DNA of 64,000 bases from Holophagaceae bacterium. Lineage in GTDB: Bacteria > Acidobacteriota > Holophagae > Holophagales > Holophagaceae. The translations under genes were made by a program, and so were the position numbers. Location: NCBI GenBank assembly GCA_013334395.1, contig JAAXXS010000003.1, positions 10,965 to 74,964 of the forward strand, read 5' to 3'. A model generated the notes under the pieces. The model ran no database searches. It was not told the DNA's origin and was given only the letters and a program-made list of their open reading frames with translations. Positions 10,888 through 57,179 of this stretch are shown here, piece by piece. Position 1 is the stretch's first letter. Every line of letters begins with the position of its first letter.

Positions 10888-11859
10888 TTACACTTCCTGC
10901 TCGAGCCGCATGCCGAGGGAGAGGCCGATACGAGCGAGCTCGTCCTTGATCTCCTGGAGCGACTTCTTGCCGAAGTTCTTGGTTTTCATCAGCTCAGCCT
11001 CGGTCCGCTGGACCAGCTCGCCGATGGTGGTGATGTTGGCGTTGCGGAGGCAGTTGTTGGCCCGCACGGAAAGTTCGAGCTCTTCGACGGACTTGCCGAG
11101 CCAGGTGTTCGCGGCCTCGACGCCAAGCGTGGCGGTGCCCATCTCCATCTCGGTGAAGTCCTCGTCCTGACGGGCGAACACCAGGAAGTGGTCGCGCAGG
11201 ATGAGGGCCGCGTCAGAGACGGCTTCCTTGGGATTGACGGCGCCGTTGGTCCAGACCTGGAGGGTGAGCTTTTCGTAATCGGTGCTCTGGCCCACCCGGG
11301 CGGGTTCGACGATGTAGTTCACGCGGACGATGGGGCTGTGGTTGGCATCCATGGGGATGAAGCCGAGACCAAGGGTCTCGTCATGGTTGCGGTCGGCAGT
11401 CATGAAGCCGCGGCCGAGCTGCACGCGCATCTCGATCTCGAGCTCGCCCTCTTCGCCCAGGGTCGCGATGTGGATGTTGGGATCCACTACCTCGACGTTC
11501 TGGTTGCAGCGGATGGCGGCGGAGGTCACGGCGCCCTCACCCTTGGCGGAGATGGTCACCGTCTGGGGCTCGTTGCTGTGCAGCTTGAAGGGTACTTCCT
11601 TTAGGTTCAAGAGGACGTGGGTGATGTCCTCCCAGACTCCGGGAAGGGTCGTGAACTCGTGCATGACGCCCTTGATGCGGACGTTGGTGACAGCGGCGCC
11701 CTGGATGCTGCTGAGCAGCACCCGGCGGACACTGTGCCCGACGGTCGTGGCGAAGCCACGCTCGAAGGGATAGGCCACGAACTCCCCGTAGGTGTCCGTG
11801 AGGGACCCGGGGGTCACCTCCGCGAATCGCGGCCTCTGGAAATCGCTGAGGTTCAGCAT
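10888..11859 (-). CDS. rpoA: RNA polymerase alpha subunit
   Basis: [22 protein letters not shown]; C-terminal [11 protein letters not shown]...KNFGKKSL. Confidence 0.98.
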
Positions 11860-49236: not shown

Positions 49237-50202
49237 TTACTTGTTTCCGCCTTTTTCGTGGCAGCCCAGGCAAGTGATGAGCTTGGGGTCGGGGCTGCGC
49301 CAGTAGACGCTATCCTGGCCCGCCACCTCCTTGCGGAGGTTCTCGGGCACCCGGGCCCAGTAGAAGATGAAGGCCGTGCTCCCGTCCGCCTTGGTCTCCT
49401 TCATGTAGAGCGGGCCGGGCTCCGTGCCCGGTTTGCCCTTCTCATCTGTGTAGGTGGCCATCACCGCATAGGCACCTGGGCGCAGCGGCTTGCCAGCCTG
49501 GTAGTCATCGATGCCCGAGGCGGTGACCCAGATCCTGCGCCACCGGTCGCCATGGGCCTTGCTTCGAGAGGGTGCCACTTCTGCTGGCTCAAGGCTGGCG
49601 TAGTCCAGGGCCCGGATCGGGAGATCGGCCTCCTGGTCGTTCCGCTTGGCGGCATCCGCCTCGGCGGCGGCCTTGTTGGTGGCCTCATTGCCGAACACCA
49701 TGATGCCCCCCAGCTTGCCGCTGAAGCCCCAGGTACCCAGCCAGAGGAGTCCCACCAGGAGAGCCGGCACGCCAGCACCCCGCTCGAAGAACCGCCGTCC
49801 CCCGTGGCGGCGGTCCGCGGGTCCAGCCTCCAGGTTCCGCCACGCGCGCCAGAGGAGGAAAACGCAGAGGCCGCCGATGACAAAGCCCGCAGCTGCCGCG
49901 AAGATGTGCAGTTGCAGCATCTTCTGGAGGACCTGTTTTTCGGAGGCAATCACCGGGAGGAACCCGGAAGGTGGAATCAGGTTGATCTGCCGCCCCCACA
50001 CCAGCCCGCTGAAGAGGGCCGCGGTGCTGCCGACCCAGGCCACCAGGGCCAGGAAGAAGGCGGTGCCCGTCGTCACCTTGCTGTGCTTCGGGAAGAAGGA
50101 GGCGAGCACCGCCAGAGGCAGGGCTGCCACCAGGCCCAGGGGCAGGTGCACAAAGGCCGGGTGCTCCCGGGCGATGAACTCGAGAAGAGGAGAGGCGATC
50201 AT
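49237..50202 (-). CDS. Membrane protein (DUF2231-like N-terminus) fused to a C-terminal single-heme c domain
   Basis: HPAFVHLPLG and four hydrophobic segments; C-terminal CLGCH at 49258-49272. Confidence 0.8.
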   Translation of the reverse strand: MIASPLLEFIAREHPAFVHLPLGLVAALPLAVLASFFPKHSKVTTGTAFFLALVAWVGSTAALFSGLVWGRQINLIPPSGFLPVIASEKQVLQKMLQLHIFAAAAGFVIGGLCVFLLWRAWRNLEAGPADRRHGGRRFFERGAGVPALLVGLLWLGTWGFSGKLGGIMVFGNEATNKAAAEADAAKRNDQEADLPIRALDYASLEPAEVAPSRSKAHGDRWRRIWVTASGIDDYQAGKPLRPGAYAVMATYTDEKGKPGTEPGPLYMKETKADGSTAFIFYWARVPENLRKEVAGQDSVYWRSPDPKLITCLGCHEKGGNK

Positions 50203-50214
50203 GAGACTCCTGGC

Positions 50215-51084
50215 TTAGAACACGCGTGCGACGTTGAAGCCGAAGGCCCACTGCGACGAGAGCCGGGGGCCGCCGCCGTAGTCGCCGCTGAGCACCTGGT
50301 TGGCGGTGGTGCCGCTTGCGTTGGTGCCAAACATCGTGAAGCGGTGCTTGAAGGTCTTGTAGGAGAAGCCTGCGGCGAACCCGTTCTGGTAGGTGGTGCC
50401 ATCGGTGATGCCGCCCGGGGCTGCCTTGGCGAACTTCGACGGCCGGGGGTAGTACTCGGTCGCGAAGGAGAACTTGTCCGTGAAGCCGACGCGCAGGCCC
50501 AGGCCCACGTTGAAGACCCCGCCCTTGTTCGGCGTGGTGTTCGGCGTCTTGCCCGGGGGCACCGGCAGGATGGTATCGGTGGTGGTGGTCTTGGTGATGT
50601 AGGTCGGGACCACCGAGAAGATGATGTCGTCCGTGAGGAAGATCTCGGTGGGCAGCTGAGCCGTCAGGCCGGAGATGCCCACCTTGCCCAGAGGCGTGAC
50701 GGTCTCCTTCACCACCTCATCGAACCGCTCCACACGAATGGCCATGCGGACCCGGTCCCCGTTCATTACCTGCTGCTGGAGGCCCACGTTGAAGGTCTTG
50801 TTGTCCGCCGTGCGGTAGATGAAGGCGTTCAGGCCCTTGATGGGCTTGATGCCGAAGGTGAAGCCCACCCCGGCGTAGGCATAGCCATCCAGACCGTAGA
50901 CGTCTTTGCCGTGGTCCTTCATGGGCTGGATGAACCGGTGCGTGAACACCACCCCCAGGTCCCAGTACTGCATCCGTTCCGCCGAGGGGAGGTTGATCAC
51001 CAGCGGGTAGTCGGAGGACTCGGCGCGGAGGGTGCCCCCGGCCAGGAGGGCACAGAGCAGCAGAGGGGTGTGCTTCAGTGTCAT
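50215..51084 (-). CDS. Outer-membrane beta-barrel protein (DUF5777-like)
   Basis: Signal peptide; INLPS...FTHRF start; alternating strands; terminal FGFNVARVF. Confidence 0.75.
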   Translation of the reverse strand: MTLKHTPLLLCALLAGGTLRAESSDYPLVINLPSAERMQYWDLGVVFTHRFIQPMKDHGKDVYGLDGYAYAGVGFTFGIKPIKGLNAFIYRTADNKTFNVGLQQQVMNGDRVRMAIRVERFDEVVKETVTPLGKVGISGLTAQLPTEIFLTDDIIFSVVPTYITKTTTTDTILPVPPGKTPNTTPNKGGVFNVGLGLRVGFTDKFSFATEYYPRPSKFAKAAPGGITDGTTYQNGFAAGFSYKTFKHRFTMFGTNASGTTANQVLSGDYGGGPRLSSQWAFGFNVARVF

Positions 51085-51101
51085 CGGAGCTCCAGGAGAA
51101 G

Positions 51102-51452
51102 TCACTTGGCGGCGAACTTGCGCATGATCCCAATCATGGCCTTAGCATCAGCCTCGGACATCTTGTCCTTAAAGGCTGGCATCTTCTCCTTGCCCTGCAG
51201 GGTGACCTTGACCCAGTCGCTGTCCTTCTTCTTGTTGGCCTTCCGGCTGTCCGTGAAGTCGAAGCCGGAATCCGGCAGCGGCTTGCCGCTGTTGTCGCGG
51301 CCATTGCCGTTGAAGCCATGGCAGCGGGCGCAGGCATCATTCCAATACTTGTTGAGGTCGCCTCCCTGGAACTTGGGCAGATCCTTGGCGGGATCACCCG
51401 CCAGCAGGGTTGCGCCGGCGAGGAGCAGGGCAGAGAGGATGGTGAGCCGCAT
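51102..51452 (-). CDS. Monoheme cytochrome c (class I)
   Basis: Signal peptide, CARCH, distal KMPAF methionine. Confidence 0.9.
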   Translation of the reverse strand: MRLTILSALLLAGATLLAGDPAKDLPKFQGGDLNKYWNDACARCHGFNGNGRDNSGKPLPDSGFDFTDSRKANKKKDSDWVKVTLQGKEKMPAFKDKMSEADAKAMIGIMRKFAAK

Positions 51453-51491
51453 GAAGGGCCTCCTAATAGGTCGGGGGGGGTGGGCTGAAAA

Positions 51492-53894
51492 CTAGTTCCA
51501 GAGGTTGCCGGTGGTGGTGTGGGTCTCCCCGTGGCAGGCGAGGGCGCATCCGCCCCTGCCCTGGGTGGCATTCACCGTGTAGGTCAGGGCCCCGGTGGCC
51601 GGCGTGACGCCGCCCCCGAACTTGATGGTGTCACTGGAGAGCTGGTCCGTGGCGTTGCGGACGGCCGTGGTGCCCAGATACTTGAAGTGGTTGACCACCC
51701 CGGTTCGGTTGTTGGTGGTGGCAGACATGTCGTGGCAGTGATCGCAAGTCTGGTTATGGTCCCCGGGGTTGTTGTGGCGGCCGGTGGCGTCGTTGTACTG
51801 GGTCGCGGTGGACGTGATCTTGTGGCAGGAAAGACAGTAGGTCGTGGCATTGAAGGTGAGCTTCCCGCTCTGCCACCCGGGGGTGGTCTGGCCGCCGTGG
51901 CAACTCACGGCGTTGCAAGTAAACGCCGTCAGGCTGGCCGTGGTGCCAAGTGTTCCGGTCTGGGCCTTGAAGGTGGCACTGATGGTCACCGGGGCAGGTC
52001 CGGTCCCAGTCGGAGTTCCATTCGGGCCACGGTTGGCGCCGTTGTAGTGCGGTTGGCTCGAGCCGCCCTCACCCGGCTGCGAGCCTGCATGGCAGGTCGC
52101 GCAGGTGAGCGTCGTGGGCAGGCCCATGTGCTTGCCGTGGGCGCCGGCAATGTTGGGGAAGGTCGTCCCAGCAGGCCCGAGGGTCTTGAAGCTGGGATCC
52201 GAATGGCAGGAGAGGCAGGTGCCCGCGCCCTTGCCAGCCGCCAGCGGCGAGGCACTGACGTGGCACTTGGTGCAGCTGGGACCGACCTTGCCGGCACCTA
52301 GCCCGGCCTCATCGTGGCAATTGATGCACTCCCCATTGAACATGGCGAGCGTCGCGGTCTGGTGGGTATTGCCTGTCCCGGAGCTGGTCGTCATCCCGGT
52401 GAGGAAGGGGGCCGGGTGTGCCGCGGCGCCCGGACCATTCACGTGACAGCTGTTCGCGTTGAAGGAGGCGCTGAAGCAGCCGGGTGCGGCGACGACGGGA
52501 GACACTGCACCGACAGTCACGCCATGGCACAGGCCACAGACGGCGGCGCGCTGGGTCGTATTGACGGCGGCGGCAGCGTTCCGGTGGGAAGCGGTATAGC
52601 TGCCACTGGCAATGCTGCCGGGCGATTTATACCAGCTGTCTGGATGCGCCTTGGCCTGGAGGTGGCAACTTGAGCAGGTGGTCGTGGTGGTCCCGCCATC
52701 GAACTTGTTGGTGCCGGGAACCCCATGGCAGGTCTGGCAGGATAGGAGGTCGGCCTTGGCCACCACCCCATGGAATGTGGCATCCGTGGCCCCAGTCGTC
52801 TTGGGATCCGTCCAGGTGGCCCCGATAGGATGGGGGGCCACGCCGGGTCCATTGGCGTGGCAGCTGACGGCGGCATGCTCAGAGTTGCCGAAGCTGGCGC
52901 TGTAGCAGCCGGGAGCGGCCGTCAGGGCAGAGGTGCTGGTCTTGGTGACGGCGTGGCAGATCACACAGGAGCCGTTCGCCTTCAGCGGATCCGTGGCATT
53001 CCGGTGGGAAGGCACATAGCCCGGGAAGGTCCCGACGGAGGCCATGTTCCAGGTCGTCGGGTGGGCACCAGCCCCCGTCGTCTTGGAATGGCAGGAGGAG
53101 CAGGCCGTGGCGGCGGAGCCCCCGTCGAACTTGGTGGTGCCTGGCGTGCCGTGGCAGCTCTGGCAGTACTTCAGATCCTTCTTGGCCTCGATGCCGTGGT
53201 AAGCGGTGCTCGTCGGATCCTTCCAGATGGCGCCGAGCGCGTGCGGCGCGCCGACGTCGGCATGGCACAGCGTGGCGTTGTAGCAGCCGGGCTGCGTCCC
53301 GGCTGGCGCCGGGGTGGCCGGGTGCCCGGCTGGATTATTGGCTGATCCCGGGAAGTGGCAGGTCGCGCAGACCGCCGCATTGGAGGTATCCGTCGAGGTG
53401 TGACTCCAGAGGGTGCCACCGGAGGTGCGCCAAGGCTTCGGGGGATGCGGCGCATTCACGCCGTGGCAGGTAGAGCAGGTCTTCGCCGAGGCGCCACCAG
53501 CAAAGTCATTGCCGTGGCAGATCTTGCAGGACACCAGACTCCCCCCGGTGAGGGCGTCCACGGCCACCTTGGCCCTTGCCCCGTGGACATCGGAGTTGGC
53601 CCACCCAGGAACGGTCTGGTGGTGACAGCCCGTGGTCATGCAGGTCGGGATGCCGCTGCCCACCTTGAGCACAGAGATCTCATGGCAGCGGGTGCAGTTG
53701 TCGATGCCGGCGATGGCGCTGCCAGGGTGCGTGTCGATCCAGCCCGCCGCGTGGTAGTTACCGTAGTAGTTGGCGACCCCGCCAGCTGCAGGCTTGGTGC
53801 CGCCACAGCCCATGAGGCCGACCAGGCAAGCGAGAAGGCATCCGAAGAGTCCCTGTAGGCCTGCTCGTTGGTCCCGGTTCTGATTCCTGCTCAT
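51492..53894 (-). CDS. Multiheme c-type cytochrome lipoprotein (up to 22 heme sites)
   Basis: Lipobox LMGC; 16 CxxCH plus CX3CH, two CX4CH, CX5CH, CX9CH and CX14CH, counted by hand. Confidence 0.93.
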   Translation of the reverse strand: MSRNQNRDQRAGLQGLFGCLLACLVGLMGCGGTKPAAGGVANYYGNYHAAGWIDTHPGSAIAGIDNCTRCHEISVLKVGSGIPTCMTTGCHHQTVPGWANSDVHGARAKVAVDALTGGSLVSCKICHGNDFAGGASAKTCSTCHGVNAPHPPKPWRTSGGTLWSHTSTDTSNAAVCATCHFPGSANNPAGHPATPAPAGTQPGCYNATLCHADVGAPHALGAIWKDPTSTAYHGIEAKKDLKYCQSCHGTPGTTKFDGGSAATACSSCHSKTTGAGAHPTTWNMASVGTFPGYVPSHRNATDPLKANGSCVICHAVTKTSTSALTAAPGCYSASFGNSEHAAVSCHANGPGVAPHPIGATWTDPKTTGATDATFHGVVAKADLLSCQTCHGVPGTNKFDGGTTTTTCSSCHLQAKAHPDSWYKSPGSIASGSYTASHRNAAAAVNTTQRAAVCGLCHGVTVGAVSPVVAAPGCFSASFNANSCHVNGPGAAAHPAPFLTGMTTSSGTGNTHQTATLAMFNGECINCHDEAGLGAGKVGPSCTKCHVSASPLAAGKGAGTCLSCHSDPSFKTLGPAGTTFPNIAGAHGKHMGLPTTLTCATCHAGSQPGEGGSSQPHYNGANRGPNGTPTGTGPAPVTISATFKAQTGTLGTTASLTAFTCNAVSCHGGQTTPGWQSGKLTFNATTYCLSCHKITSTATQYNDATGRHNNPGDHNQTCDHCHDMSATTNNRTGVVNHFKYLGTTAVRNATDQLSSDTIKFGGGVTPATGALTYTVNATQGRGGCALACHGETHTTTGNLWN

Positions 53895-54212
53895 GTGGAC
53901 ACCCAAGAATGGCTGGCGGCTCGTGAAGGAGGGACGCTGGCGGAGGGAGAATAAATCAGGCTTGTGGATGGCTCAGAGACCCATCGTCACGGCATTGCAA
54001 CAGCATGAGGATTACTTGAGGTCGATCTTACGAAGCGCCCCGGGTTTATTCCTGAGGGAAAATGTAGACAAGAAGTGCTGCTGCATGACTAGTCCACTAT
54101 CGCGTGAGATTTCCATTGATCCTATATCCCGATTGGTTGCCCATTCCTAGACCATAGGGTCTAGGCCTTCACCATTGATCCTACTCGGGTTATGGCATAA
54201 TCTTCAGCTTCC

Positions 54213-57179
54213 ATGGCCGCACGGTTTGCAGGAAACCGATATCCCGACTCAGGCGCTCTCCGGCGCCTCGCCTTCCTGCTGCTCTGGCTGTGTGCCTCGG
54301 CTTTTGCACTCGATCCGGACCGGCCCCTGGCCACCCACGCGCATCGCTCCTGGCGGAGCGAGGATGGCTTGCTTCAGGACACTGCTGTGGCACTTCTTGA
54401 GAGCCGGGGCGGTTTCCTCTGGGTCGGCACCGAGGCAGGTCTGGTCCGCTTCGACGGCGCCAGCTTTGAGCACCGCTCCCGGGTGGAAGTCCCCGCCTTT
54501 GTTCACAACCGGATCCAAGCCCTGGCCGAGGGCGACCGCGGAGCCATCTGGGTCGCCACCTCGGAACCGGGGCTCTACCTGTTTGATCAGGGCGCCATGC
54601 GCGCTCTGGGTTCGGAAGCTGGATTGCCAGACAACCCCATCCGGCGCCTGCTGAGAGACCGGGCAGGAACGCTCTGGGCCGCGCCCACCGAAGGACCCCT
54701 GCTCCGCTACGACGGGAAGCGCTTCCAGACGGTGCCCTCGGATGCCGCCCATCTGCGCATCCGGGCGCTGGCGGAGGATCCGGAGGGCGGGCTCTGGGTG
54801 GGCACCTCGGGTTCCGGCCTCTGGCGCCTGCGGGAGGGGCGCCTCGTGGTGGCGGCGCTGACTGCGGCGGAGATCACCACCCTGGAAATCGGCACCGATG
54901 GAGATGTCTGGGTCGGGACCCGAGCCCAGGGTCTCTTCACGCTGGCAGATGGCCAGCTGTGGGCACCACCCTGGGTCCGTGGGCTGCCGGCGCAAGGCAT
55001 CAGCGCGCTCCGCCTGGATCGCGAGGGCAGCTTGTGGATCGGCCTGGAGCAGGCCGGACTCTTCCGGCGGACCCCGGCCGGACGCCTGGAGGCGGCGCCA
55101 AGCCTAGGCAATGCCCGCAGCACCCCCCTCGCCCTGCTGGAGGACCGCTCCGGCGCCCTGTGGGCGGGCACCGAACACCACGGCCTGCATGTCCTCTACC
55201 CAGTTCCCTTCCGGGGCCTCCCCCTGGTCGGTGCTCCCCCCGAGGAGCCCCTCAGAATGGTCTGCCAGGACTCCGGGGGCTCGGTCTGGTGCGTGACGGT
55301 GGACCACGCCCTGGGCATGGTCCGTCCTGGGCAGGTGGAGCGGGCCCCCCGGGGCAGCCAACCCAACGCCCCGATCACGGCCCTCTGGCCGCGCCTGGCC
55401 GGGGGCCTCTGGCTGGGCACCCGGAAGGGTGAACTCTATACGCTGGATCAGGGCCACCTCCAGCGAGCCGACGTGGCCCAGGGGCCCCGTTCAGACGCCA
55501 TCCTCACGATCTTCGAGGATGGCCAGCGGGTGCTGTGGGTCGCCACGGCGCGGCAGGGCCTGTTCCGGATTCCGCCCAGCGGTTCTCCCCTGCTCTTTCC
55601 GACGGTCCAAGGTGTCCTGGCCATGGCTGGCGGCGGCACGCAGCCCCTGTATCTCGCCAGCCCCACCCAGGGCCTGGGCATCGTGGATGCCGGCCAGGTG
55701 CGCTGGCTGGGCCGGGCCGAAGGGCTGGGCTCCGCCGGAGCCCAGTCGCTCCACCTGAGCGAGGATGGGAACCTCTGGGTCGGCACCGGGGAGGGCCTCC
55801 GGCGCTTCCGGGACGGTCGGTTCCAGCCCCTCCCCGATCACGCCGCGCCCCTCCTCCTGGCCATTCACGCGATCCTCGAGGACCGCACCGGGCGGCTGTG
55901 GCTGAGCACGACCCAGGGTGTGTTCCGGATCCCCCGGGAGGCCCTCCTGCGGAGTCACCGGGAGCCTGGCACCTTGCCCATGATGGTCTTCGACCAGCAC
56001 GACGGCATGCCCTCCCGCGAGACGCTGGGAGGCCCCCAGCCCGCCGCCTGGCTCACCCGCGAAGGAGCCCTCTACTTTCCCACCAGCCGCGGACTGTCCC
56101 GGATGGACGGCAACGCCTCCGCGCCGAAAGGCCCCCCGCTCACCCTCCTCCTGCTGAGGGCCGAAGCCGACGAGACAACCCTCCCGGAAACCCATCCCAT
56201 CCAGGTTCCCCCGGGAACCCACCGCTTCGAGATCTACTACACGGCAGCCTCGCTGACCCGGGCCGACAAGGTCCGCTTCCGCTACCGGCTGGAAGGGTGG
56301 GAGCAGGCCTGGAATGAGGTGGGGAGCCGCCGCTTCTCCGCCTACTCAAACCTGCCCCCGGGTTCCTACCGGTTCGTGGTCCAGTCCTGGCGACTGGACG
56401 TTGAGGGCCGGCCCGAGGAATGCGCGGTGGACGTCCGGGTGCAGCCCTTCCTGTACCAGCGGCCGACCTTCTGGGTGGTCTGCGGACTCGCTGCTGCAGC
56501 CTTCGGCTGGTGGCTGCTGCGCCTCCGCCTCCAGCAGATGGAGGCCCGCTCCGCCGTCCTTGCCGAGCGGAACCGCATCGCCCGGGAGATCCACGACCAC
56601 CTCGCCCAAGGCTTCACGGGCGTCCTGCTGCAGCTGGAGGCGGCCGAGGCCAAGCTCACCCGCATGGAGGGCGATCCGGCCCCGGTCCTCACACGCATCG
56701 AGCACGCCCGGAACCTGGCCGCGGACAGTCTGCAGGAAGCCCGCCGCTCGGTCATGACACTCAGCCCCCGGAAGCCCGAAGGCAAGGACCTCCTGGGCTC
56801 TCTGCGGATCCTGGCCGACCGCCTGCTGGCGGGGACGGAGATCCAGGTGGAGTTGGCCCTCACCGGAGAGCCCCGGCCGCTCCGCAACCAGCTGGAGGAG
56901 GATCTCCTCCGCATGGCCCAGGAGCTTCTGACCAATGCCCTGCGGCACGGCAAGGCAAGGTGGGTGCGCATCGTGCTGCAGTTCGAGGGGCGGCTGGTGC
57001 ACCTCAGCATCGAGGATGACGGGTGCGGCTTCGACCCCTCCGCCAGCGCCGCCGGCTATGGCATGCGCAGCATCCGTGAGAGCCTCAAGACGCTGCGGGG
57101 GCACCTCGACATCGACAGCACTCCGGGTTTCGGTTCTCGCATCACCCTCACAGTGCCCATCCGAAGGTGGCCCTTATGA
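54213..57179 (+). CDS. Sensor histidine kinase with periplasmic beta-propeller (Reg_prop) and Y_Y_Y domains, HisKA_3 type
   Basis: Repeated GxLWxGT blades; FRYRLEG...YSNLPPGSYRF; TM; ERNRIAREIHD; NALRH, DDG.GF and GYGM boxes. Confidence 0.93.
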   Translation: MAARFAGNRYPDSGALRRLAFLLLWLCASAFALDPDRPLATHAHRSWRSEDGLLQDTAVALLESRGGFLWVGTEAGLVRFDGASFEHRSRVEVPAFVHNRIQALAEGDRGAIWVATSEPGLYLFDQGAMRALGSEAGLPDNPIRRLLRDRAGTLWAAPTEGPLLRYDGKRFQTVPSDAAHLRIRALAEDPEGGLWVGTSGSGLWRLREGRLVVAALTAAEITTLEIGTDGDVWVGTRAQGLFTLADGQLWAPPWVRGLPAQGISALRLDREGSLWIGLEQAGLFRRTPAGRLEAAPSLGNARSTPLALLEDRSGALWAGTEHHGLHVLYPVPFRGLPLVGAPPEEPLRMVCQDSGGSVWCVTVDHALGMVRPGQVERAPRGSQPNAPITALWPRLAGGLWLGTRKGELYTLDQGHLQRADVAQGPRSDAILTIFEDGQRVLWVATARQGLFRIPPSGSPLLFPTVQGVLAMAGGGTQPLYLASPTQGLGIVDAGQVRWLGRAEGLGSAGAQSLHLSEDGNLWVGTGEGLRRFRDGRFQPLPDHAAPLLLAIHAILEDRTGRLWLSTTQGVFRIPREALLRSHREPGTLPMMVFDQHDGMPSRETLGGPQPAAWLTREGALYFPTSRGLSRMDGNASAPKGPPLTLLLLRAEADETTLPETHPIQVPPGTHRFEIYYTAASLTRADKVRFRYRLEGWEQAWNEVGSRRFSAYSNLPPGSYRFVVQSWRLDVEGRPEECAVDVRVQPFLYQRPTFWVVCGLAAAAFGWWLLRLRLQQMEARSAVLAERNRIAREIHDHLAQGFTGVLLQLEAAEAKLTRMEGDPAPVLTRIEHARNLAADSLQEARRSVMTLSPRKPEGKDLLGSLRILADRLLAGTEIQVELALTGEPRPLRNQLEEDLLRMAQELLTNALRHGKARWVRIVLQFEGRLVHLSIEDDGCGFDPSASAAGYGMRSIRESLKTLRGHLDIDSTPGFGSRITLTVPIRRWPL

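Follow-up and report, generated by a model that had tools for sequence, protein, structure and literature searches.

A modular multiheme lipoprotein cytochrome of a Holophagaceae bacterium with 22 C-Xn-CH pairs, probably including long-spacer heme c sites

Does a cytochrome in which some cysteine pairs are spread over 5, 14 or 9 residues attach heme at these pairs, so that it would carry 22 hemes rather than the 16 that a search for CxxCH returns? This question is raised by a gene on the reverse strand of a 64,000-nucleotide stretch of DNA, called the window below (positions 10,965 to 74,964 of contig JAAXXS010000003.1, assembly GCA_013334395.1), from a Holophagaceae bacterium that is Geothrix-like to judge by the names of homologues and related loci. 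A first-pass annotation of the window had noticed that the encoded cytochrome repeats a tetraheme unit three times, that the last motif of each unit begins with PGC and has a stretched spacer, and that positional homology would mark these motifs as real heme sites that a CxxCH scan misses. Our comparison with relatives strongly supports that argument at the level of sequence, and the PGC[YF]-Xn-CH pairs are probably genuine heme c sites. The count has consequences beyond this protein. The paper describing Candidatus Geothrix metagenome-assembled genomes counted CXXCH only (PMC8100337), and such counts would overlook roughly one heme in four across this widespread family (16 against 22 in the present protein). 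Heme chains predicted from CxxCH alone would also be interrupted wherever two modules join.

A single open frame spans 51492-53906 on the reverse strand and encodes 804 amino acids from a TTG at 53906. The closest database protein (P0002, 800 amino acids, 99% identical) begins at the ATG that matches 53894; because of this, the ATG was taken as the likely start, giving 800 amino acids here as well. Residue numbers below count from the TTG, and 4 is subtracted for the ATG start. The translation contains 16 CxxCH motifs and six further C-Xn-CH pairs, namely CX4CH at residue 89, CX5CH at 208, CX14CH at 334, CX9CH at 477, CX4CH at 664 and CX3CH at 787. Every Cys beyond the signal peptide lies in a C-Xn-CH pair; three more lie within the signal peptide. 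The motif map thus returned the same 22 sites and 16 CxxCH motifs as the first-pass annotation, and the translation placed the three long sites exactly where it had put them (C208-H215, C334-H350 and C477-H488). The repeat alignment likewise reproduced the three-copy tetraheme unit with its residue pattern. The copies (R1-R3, Table 1) share 31%, 36% and 53% pairwise identity, and each ends with P-G-C-[YF]-Xn-C-H, referred to here as site IV. Pfam models for c7, c3 and MtrC domain II/IV scored above threshold on the cytochrome. TIGR01904 scored 23.7 bits, below its cut-off of 27, and covered the C-terminal octaheme part only, where a motif pair of its type is present (CX4CH at residue 664, CxxCH at residue 691).

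To read the long sites against their relatives, 221 distinct modules from 120 related proteins were aligned. These modules were chosen by requiring the site IV pair, while their distal His and the whole-protein architectures were not selected in this way. The alignment contained exactly eight Cys and eight His columns that are invariant or nearly so, the His being four motif His and four distal His. The four non-motif His were present in 221, 221, 221 and 219 of the 221 modules. Eight Cys and eight His per module fit four bis-His hemes. In our protein the distal His are His96, His108, His154 and His169 in R1, His222, His237, His282 and His301 in R2, and His359, His379, His421 and His441 in R3; His52 and His60 of the N-terminal diheme unit are invariant in the homologue alignment. 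Counted along the entire chain, the 22 sites have 22 motif His and are matched by 21-22 conserved distal His. The homologue alignment that had been proposed as a check on the long sites gave a clear result, as the paired Cys and the His were kept in all relatives examined.

The same 5/14/9 architecture was found in 10 of the 120 homologues, with the spacers kept exactly. The others use the same building blocks in different numbers, with the C-terminal octaheme module repeated up to eight times, and have almost no Cys outside C-Xn-CH pairs. A lipobox of the form L-x-[GA]-C-G-G is kept at the N-terminus of homologues. Cys pairing was likewise near-complete in 80 genomic loci from several phyla, which included the isolates Geothrix campi, G. 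paludis, G. rubra, G. terrae and G. limicola and metagenome-assembled genomes labeled Deltaproteobacteria, Deferrimicrobiaceae, Nitrospirota and Desantisbacteria. Some relatives are very large. One open frame of 2739 amino acids (L053:5758-13974, forward strand) has one tetraheme and eight octaheme modules with 70 C-Xn-CH sites; other giants are P0131 (1832 amino acids) and L084:820-8835, and a further representative carries 68 sites.

A profile of 97 diverse modules was then compared with 1.84 billion representative sequences, clustered at 50% identity. It matched 1515 clusters at E ≤ 0.001 and 669 at E ≤ 1e-10. In 145 new remote family proteins among the matches listed, only 133 of 6763 Cys (2%) lay outside C-Xn-CH pairs. 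With pairing complete in our protein and 98% in these remote relatives, the long sites are not chance. Site IV could be read in 442 full-length module matches, where n was 5 (303 matches), 9 (70) or 14 (54) and rarely 2, 4, 6, 10 or 16; one of the 54 CX14 copies has lost a canonical site. A P-x-C context precedes site IV at all lengths, including short ones such as GPAC-TT-CH, NPTC-FNSA-CH and VPSC-YGSD-CH. Canonical CxxCH and c3-type CX4CH thus occur at site IV, which means that accepted heme sites share this position with the long ones. Site II of the module varies as well, CxxCH being interchanged with CX3, CX4, CX5, CX6, CX7, CX9 and CX12CH, and some family members have an exact 2-4-2-4 site pattern. 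The first-pass annotation had called long CXnCH sites rare. This needs qualifying, since variable length is the norm for sites in this large family and a CX14CH site has already been solved in OmcZ.

The spacers themselves show signs of inheritance. Among the 11 closest orthologues, spacer identity was 93% for CX5, 84% for CX14 and 59% for CX9, against a figure of 76% when the mature protein is taken as a whole. A distinct consensus marks every length class, C-[FY]-N-x-T-[LM]-CH being one example. In a tree of the 97 modules, all CX5 modules fell in one clade, and CX9 and CX14 modules were interleaved in the other (support 1.0), so spacer length changed more than once. Within the CX5 spacer (53265-53282 and its counterparts), Asn occupies position 2 in 26 of 28 distinct versions and Thr position 4 in 24 of 28, which places an N-x-T inside the heme motif. 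The CX5 module is also reused in another protein of the same genome (G000) outside the window: a second cytochrome (G000:C72:514-1707, reverse strand) has the pattern 2 2 2 2 2 5 twice, and each half ends with TAPGC[YF]NAT[ML]CH.

Taken together, a conserved C-Xn-CH, an export signal, a maturation system and a supply of distal His, the sequence features expected of a c-type heme site, can all be recognized here. The best explanation overall, to which we assign a probability of roughly 75%, is a modular 22-heme lipoprotein in which site IV holds the fourth covalent heme of each module and maturation relies on a single System II. The exported, lipid-anchored protein would begin with a diheme head, continue through three tetraheme modules in tandem and end in a TIGR01904-like octaheme tail. 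At each PGC[YF]-Xn-CH (n = 5, 14, 9), thioether bonds would join the heme vinyls to both Cys, the next His would serve as the proximal ligand, and the residues between the Cys would protrude in a structured loop like the one at the OmcZ CX14CH heme. Covalent occupancy and bis-His ligation at these sites would then yield 22 mostly bis-His hemes forming an electron-transfer chain. Heme would most likely be attached by the single housekeeping ResB and CcsA with no dedicated isoenzyme, and spacer length would be a heritable trait of module subtypes, one a CX5 clade and the other a CX9/CX14 clade.

Several observations weigh against this 22-heme reading. The invariance of the site IV pair in the 221 modules is partly by construction because the selection required that pair. 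AlphaFold2 predicted the whole protein from a 24-sequence alignment with a mean predicted local distance difference test (pLDDT) score of 32.6, which is unusable; a single module reached 67.8, with the CX14 loop below 50. A Foldseek search with the single-module model gave no PDB match, and sequence and profile searches of the PDB found no solved relative. According to a review, CXXCK and CX15CH depend on dedicated synthases (PMC10663686). The source assembly, 96% complete, is broken into 343 contigs, with the CcsA gene on one of 1.5 kb, and could therefore have missed a second synthase. The weak PDB matches that did appear (HAO-like, MtrC, GSU1996, NrfA/B) ran over the first three motifs, and none aligned to site IV.

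The first alternative concerns the CX14 loop, whose spacer contains an extra His that had been put forward as a possible axial ligand. This His is present (His344, position 10 of the spacer), and the proposed role fares less well. As a ligand of its own heme or of a neighboring one, or as a switchable ligand, His344 would find some backing in its conservation, because 29 of 51 distinct CX14 loops carry His at this position inside a conserved N-[SA]-E-H-A, and it is invariant among the 11 closest orthologues. Against this, 18 of the 51 loops have Gly there instead (N-x-D-G type), and the CX14 modules of two genomes from two other genera (G012 and G036) have no His anywhere in the loop. CX14 modules also keep the four regular distal His invariant, leaving no heme short of a ligand. 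A His confined to one CX14 subtype, together with a full set of distal His, indicates that the site does not require it. A ligand role is possible and nothing calls for it; we consider it unlikely.

The second alternative accepts the CX9 and CX14 sites as real and assigns them to a dedicated factor, either a second CcsBA-type synthase that is unassembled here or a protein unlike CcsA. In the source genome, ResB and PF01578 (CcsA-type) are each represented by a single gene and CcmE is absent; ResB plus CcsA without CcmE indicates System II. The sole CcsA-type gene lies at G000:C77:709-1317 (forward strand) on the 1.5-kb contig, and the sole ResB at G000:C131:601-810 (reverse strand) on a different contig, a separation that may reflect an assembly break. 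By analogy with MccA, the first-pass annotation had pointed to a dedicated CcsA-type synthase and suggested looking for extra paralogues; with one ResB and one CcsA in the genome, that search gave no genomic support. Relatives offer both kinds of genome. Two PF01578 genes occur in four same-genus genomes (two of these in 1-2 contigs), the second encoding about 741 amino acids, and all four lack this cytochrome. One such protein (L009:10-2235, forward strand, in the same-genus genome G003) is apparently of the fused ResB/CcsA type; the approximately 741-residue protein shares only 32% identity with the housekeeping CcsA and shows no co-occurrence with this cytochrome. A tblastn search of the source genome with this paralogue found only the housekeeping CcsA and ResB.

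Among the sampled genomes in the family that carry the module, 9 of 13 have a single PF01578 gene. These nine include the closed genomes G027 and G034 (CX5 and CX9) as well as G012 and G036, each of which has two CX14 sites. A single PF01578 gene was also counted in the G. campi isolate (CX14) and in Candidatus G. odensensis (5/14/9 architecture); together with G012, G036 and the source genome, this makes five CX14 genomes with one such gene. Two PF01578 genes each are present in G. paludis, G. rubra and G. terrae. Most genomes with two copies are devoid of the module. No co-occurrence of a dedicated CcsA paralogue with the cytochrome, of the MccA/CcsA1 kind, was seen in the sampled family genomes, and the conserved operon around the gene encodes no candidate maturation factor. 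In favor of a dedicated factor stand the published rule for CX15CH and CXXCK, the second protein of about 741 residues in some Geothrix genomes, the small contig that holds CcsA in the source genome, and a report that native OmcZ with its CX14CH could not be expressed in Shewanella (bioRxiv 10.64898/2026.07.18.739370). On the PF01578 counts, a dedicated synthase was rejected as a candidate. The genomes compared are related rather than independent samples, and not all assemblies are complete; the idea of a dedicated synthase is therefore lowered, not eliminated, and overall we judge a dedicated factor quite unlikely.

If the housekeeping system serves all these sites, a broader proposal can be made, which we offer tentatively as a possibility that still has the odds against it. 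One housekeeping ResB/CcsA would attach heme to C-Xn-CH with n from 2 to 14-16, and the gap between the Cys would be a freely evolvable insertion point for loops. The textbook view is that long-spacer motifs need dedicated lyases, and the single-synthase reading, if true, contradicts it. The rule of one dedicated lyase per unusual motif would then need revising. Surface loops would be grafted directly onto heme, where a His-bearing loop could tune the potential, dock partners or bind minerals, and the loops would become candidate places for engineering multiheme wires. The natural series of n = 2, 4, 5, 6, 9, 10, 14 and 16 at one homologous site offers a probe of synthase substrate recognition and loop tolerance.

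Weakest and very unlikely is the proposal that the PGC...CH pairs are disulfide staples whose trailing His is a distal ligand to a neighboring heme, leaving 16 hemes: disulfides can form across long C-Xn-C loops of exported proteins and the AlphaFold2 loop geometry is not confident, but a three-heme module would need six His where eight are invariant or nearly so, site IV is a canonical CxxCH or c3-type CX4CH in some relatives, site II swaps CxxCH with CX3-12CH in the same way, and the His right after the second Cys is kept in all copies, which a disulfide would not demand.

The 22-heme cytochrome that we favor sits in a conserved neighborhood (Table 1). Across Holophagaceae loci (window 49237-57179; loci L033-L091), the order of divergent sensor kinase, cytochrome, monoheme c, DUF5777 and DUF2231-heme protein is kept. 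The make-up of the cytochrome in this slot varies (example loci L045:5791-10093 and L058:5929-11821). Here the 5/14/9 set is joined to one octaheme module, whereas four Geothrix isolates combine 5/14 with one octaheme module and G. limicola combines 5 with three. Modules thus seem to be gained and lost rapidly while the locus stays fixed. The gene context suggests an envelope location and extracellular or periplasmic electron transfer together with the monoheme c, the DUF5777 barrel and the DUF2231-heme protein. Sediments and wastewater sludge commonly harbor Geothrix and other Holophagaceae, which are Fe(III) reducers, and the cytochrome is a plausible part of their electron-export machinery.

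Table 1. Features of the cytochrome gene and its neighbors in the window (window coordinates).
Feature	Position	Strand	Basis
Lipoprotein multiheme cytochrome c gene, 22 C-Xn-CH sites	51492..53894	-	Open reading frame, motif map, P0002 start, Pfam
Predicted signal peptide with lipobox L-M-G-C (lipidated Cys34, 53805-53807)	53805..53894	-	Sequence reading
N-terminal diheme unit: CxxCH 53682-53696, CX4CH 53622-53642; distal His52, His60	53622..53804	-	Motif map
Tetraheme module R1, residues 96-215; site IV QPGC-YNATL-CH = CX5CH 53262-53285	53262..53621	-	
Tetraheme module R2, residues 216-350; site IV CX14CH 52857-52907; spacer His344 52875-52877	52857..53261	-	
Tetraheme module R3, residues 351-488; site IV CX9CH 52443-52478	52443..52856	-	
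C-terminal octaheme module, site pattern 2 2 2 2 4 2 2 3; CX4CH 51897-51917, CX3CH 51531-51548	51495..52442	-	
Monoheme class I cytochrome c, downstream partner	51102..51452	-	Pfam Cytochrome_CBB3/Cytochrom_C; synteny across Holophagaceae loci
DUF5777 outer-membrane beta-barrel	50215..51105	-	PF19089, E 7e-22; synteny
DUF2231-type membrane protein, C-terminal CxxCH domain	49237..50202	-	PF09990 weak, below cut-off; synteny
Divergent Reg_prop/Y_Y_Y HisKA_3 sensor kinase	54213..57179	+	Pfam; synteny

Set beside known systems, the protein presents an unstudied variant of a known theme, variable-length C-Xn-CH at homologous positions of a large modular cytochrome family, rather than a new kind of system. 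The literature already describes heme c motifs such as CX3CH, CX4CH, CX11CH, CX15CH and CX17CH (PMC11492766), and generic CXnCH motifs have already been counted in some surveys (bioRxiv 10.64898/2026.05.27.727921). Our literature search returned no relevant paper on CX5CH, CX6CH, CX8CH, CX9CH, CX10CH or CX12CH. NCBI and JGI label homologues "CxxxxCH/CxxCH domain-containing protein". The octaheme module resembles the Geobacter-type TIGR01904/PF09698 proteins in having CX4CH followed by CxxCH, whereas the TIGR01904 model leaves the tetraheme modules and the CX5/9/14CH sites undescribed.

The tetraheme modules recall class III cytochrome c3 (PF02085), with which they would share four bis-His hemes in about 110-135 residues; the c3 and c7 Pfam models score above their cut-offs here. 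PF02085 reached 30.8 bits against a gathering threshold of 22.9 over four stretches, with an ambiguous alignment register and, in the best stretch, the third motif at the profile end. HmcA, a multi-domain c3 relative, matched the cytochrome weakly. In both c3 and this family the even sites (II and IV) bear the extended spacers, CX4CH in c3, and the 2-4-2-4 members of the family reproduce that pattern exactly. The placement of the distal His differs, however, and spacers reach 14-16 here compared with 4 in c3; the likeness is one of Pfam scores and of the pattern of sites.

MccA of Wolinella succinogenes, whose CX15CH heme has the dedicated synthase CcsA1 and to which the CX11CH and CX17CH sites are related, shares the long loop between the Cys and System II maturation. 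No MccA chain was among the PDB matches to sequence or profile queries. MccA is an enzyme with a special heme at its active site, whereas here the long sites belong to repeated wire elements with full distal His, and no dedicated CcsA paralogue co-occurs with the cytochrome.

The closest parallel in spacer length is OmcZ, the octaheme nanowire of Geobacter sulfurreducens, where CX14CH binds a heme (PMC13748539). OmcZ with 12 loop residues (56-67) deleted to CXXCH was still functional (bioRxiv 10.64898/2026.07.18.739370). A derivation of the CX14 module from OmcZ was considered and rejected for want of detectable homology; PDB profile searches with E up to 10 returned no OmcZ chain. Both proteins have a spacer of 14 in a covalent heme c site, in OmcZ that of an extracellular multiheme cytochrome and here a probable one. 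OmcZ has a single long site (heme II), whereas in this family the variable site ends every repeated module, with lengths from 2 to 16.

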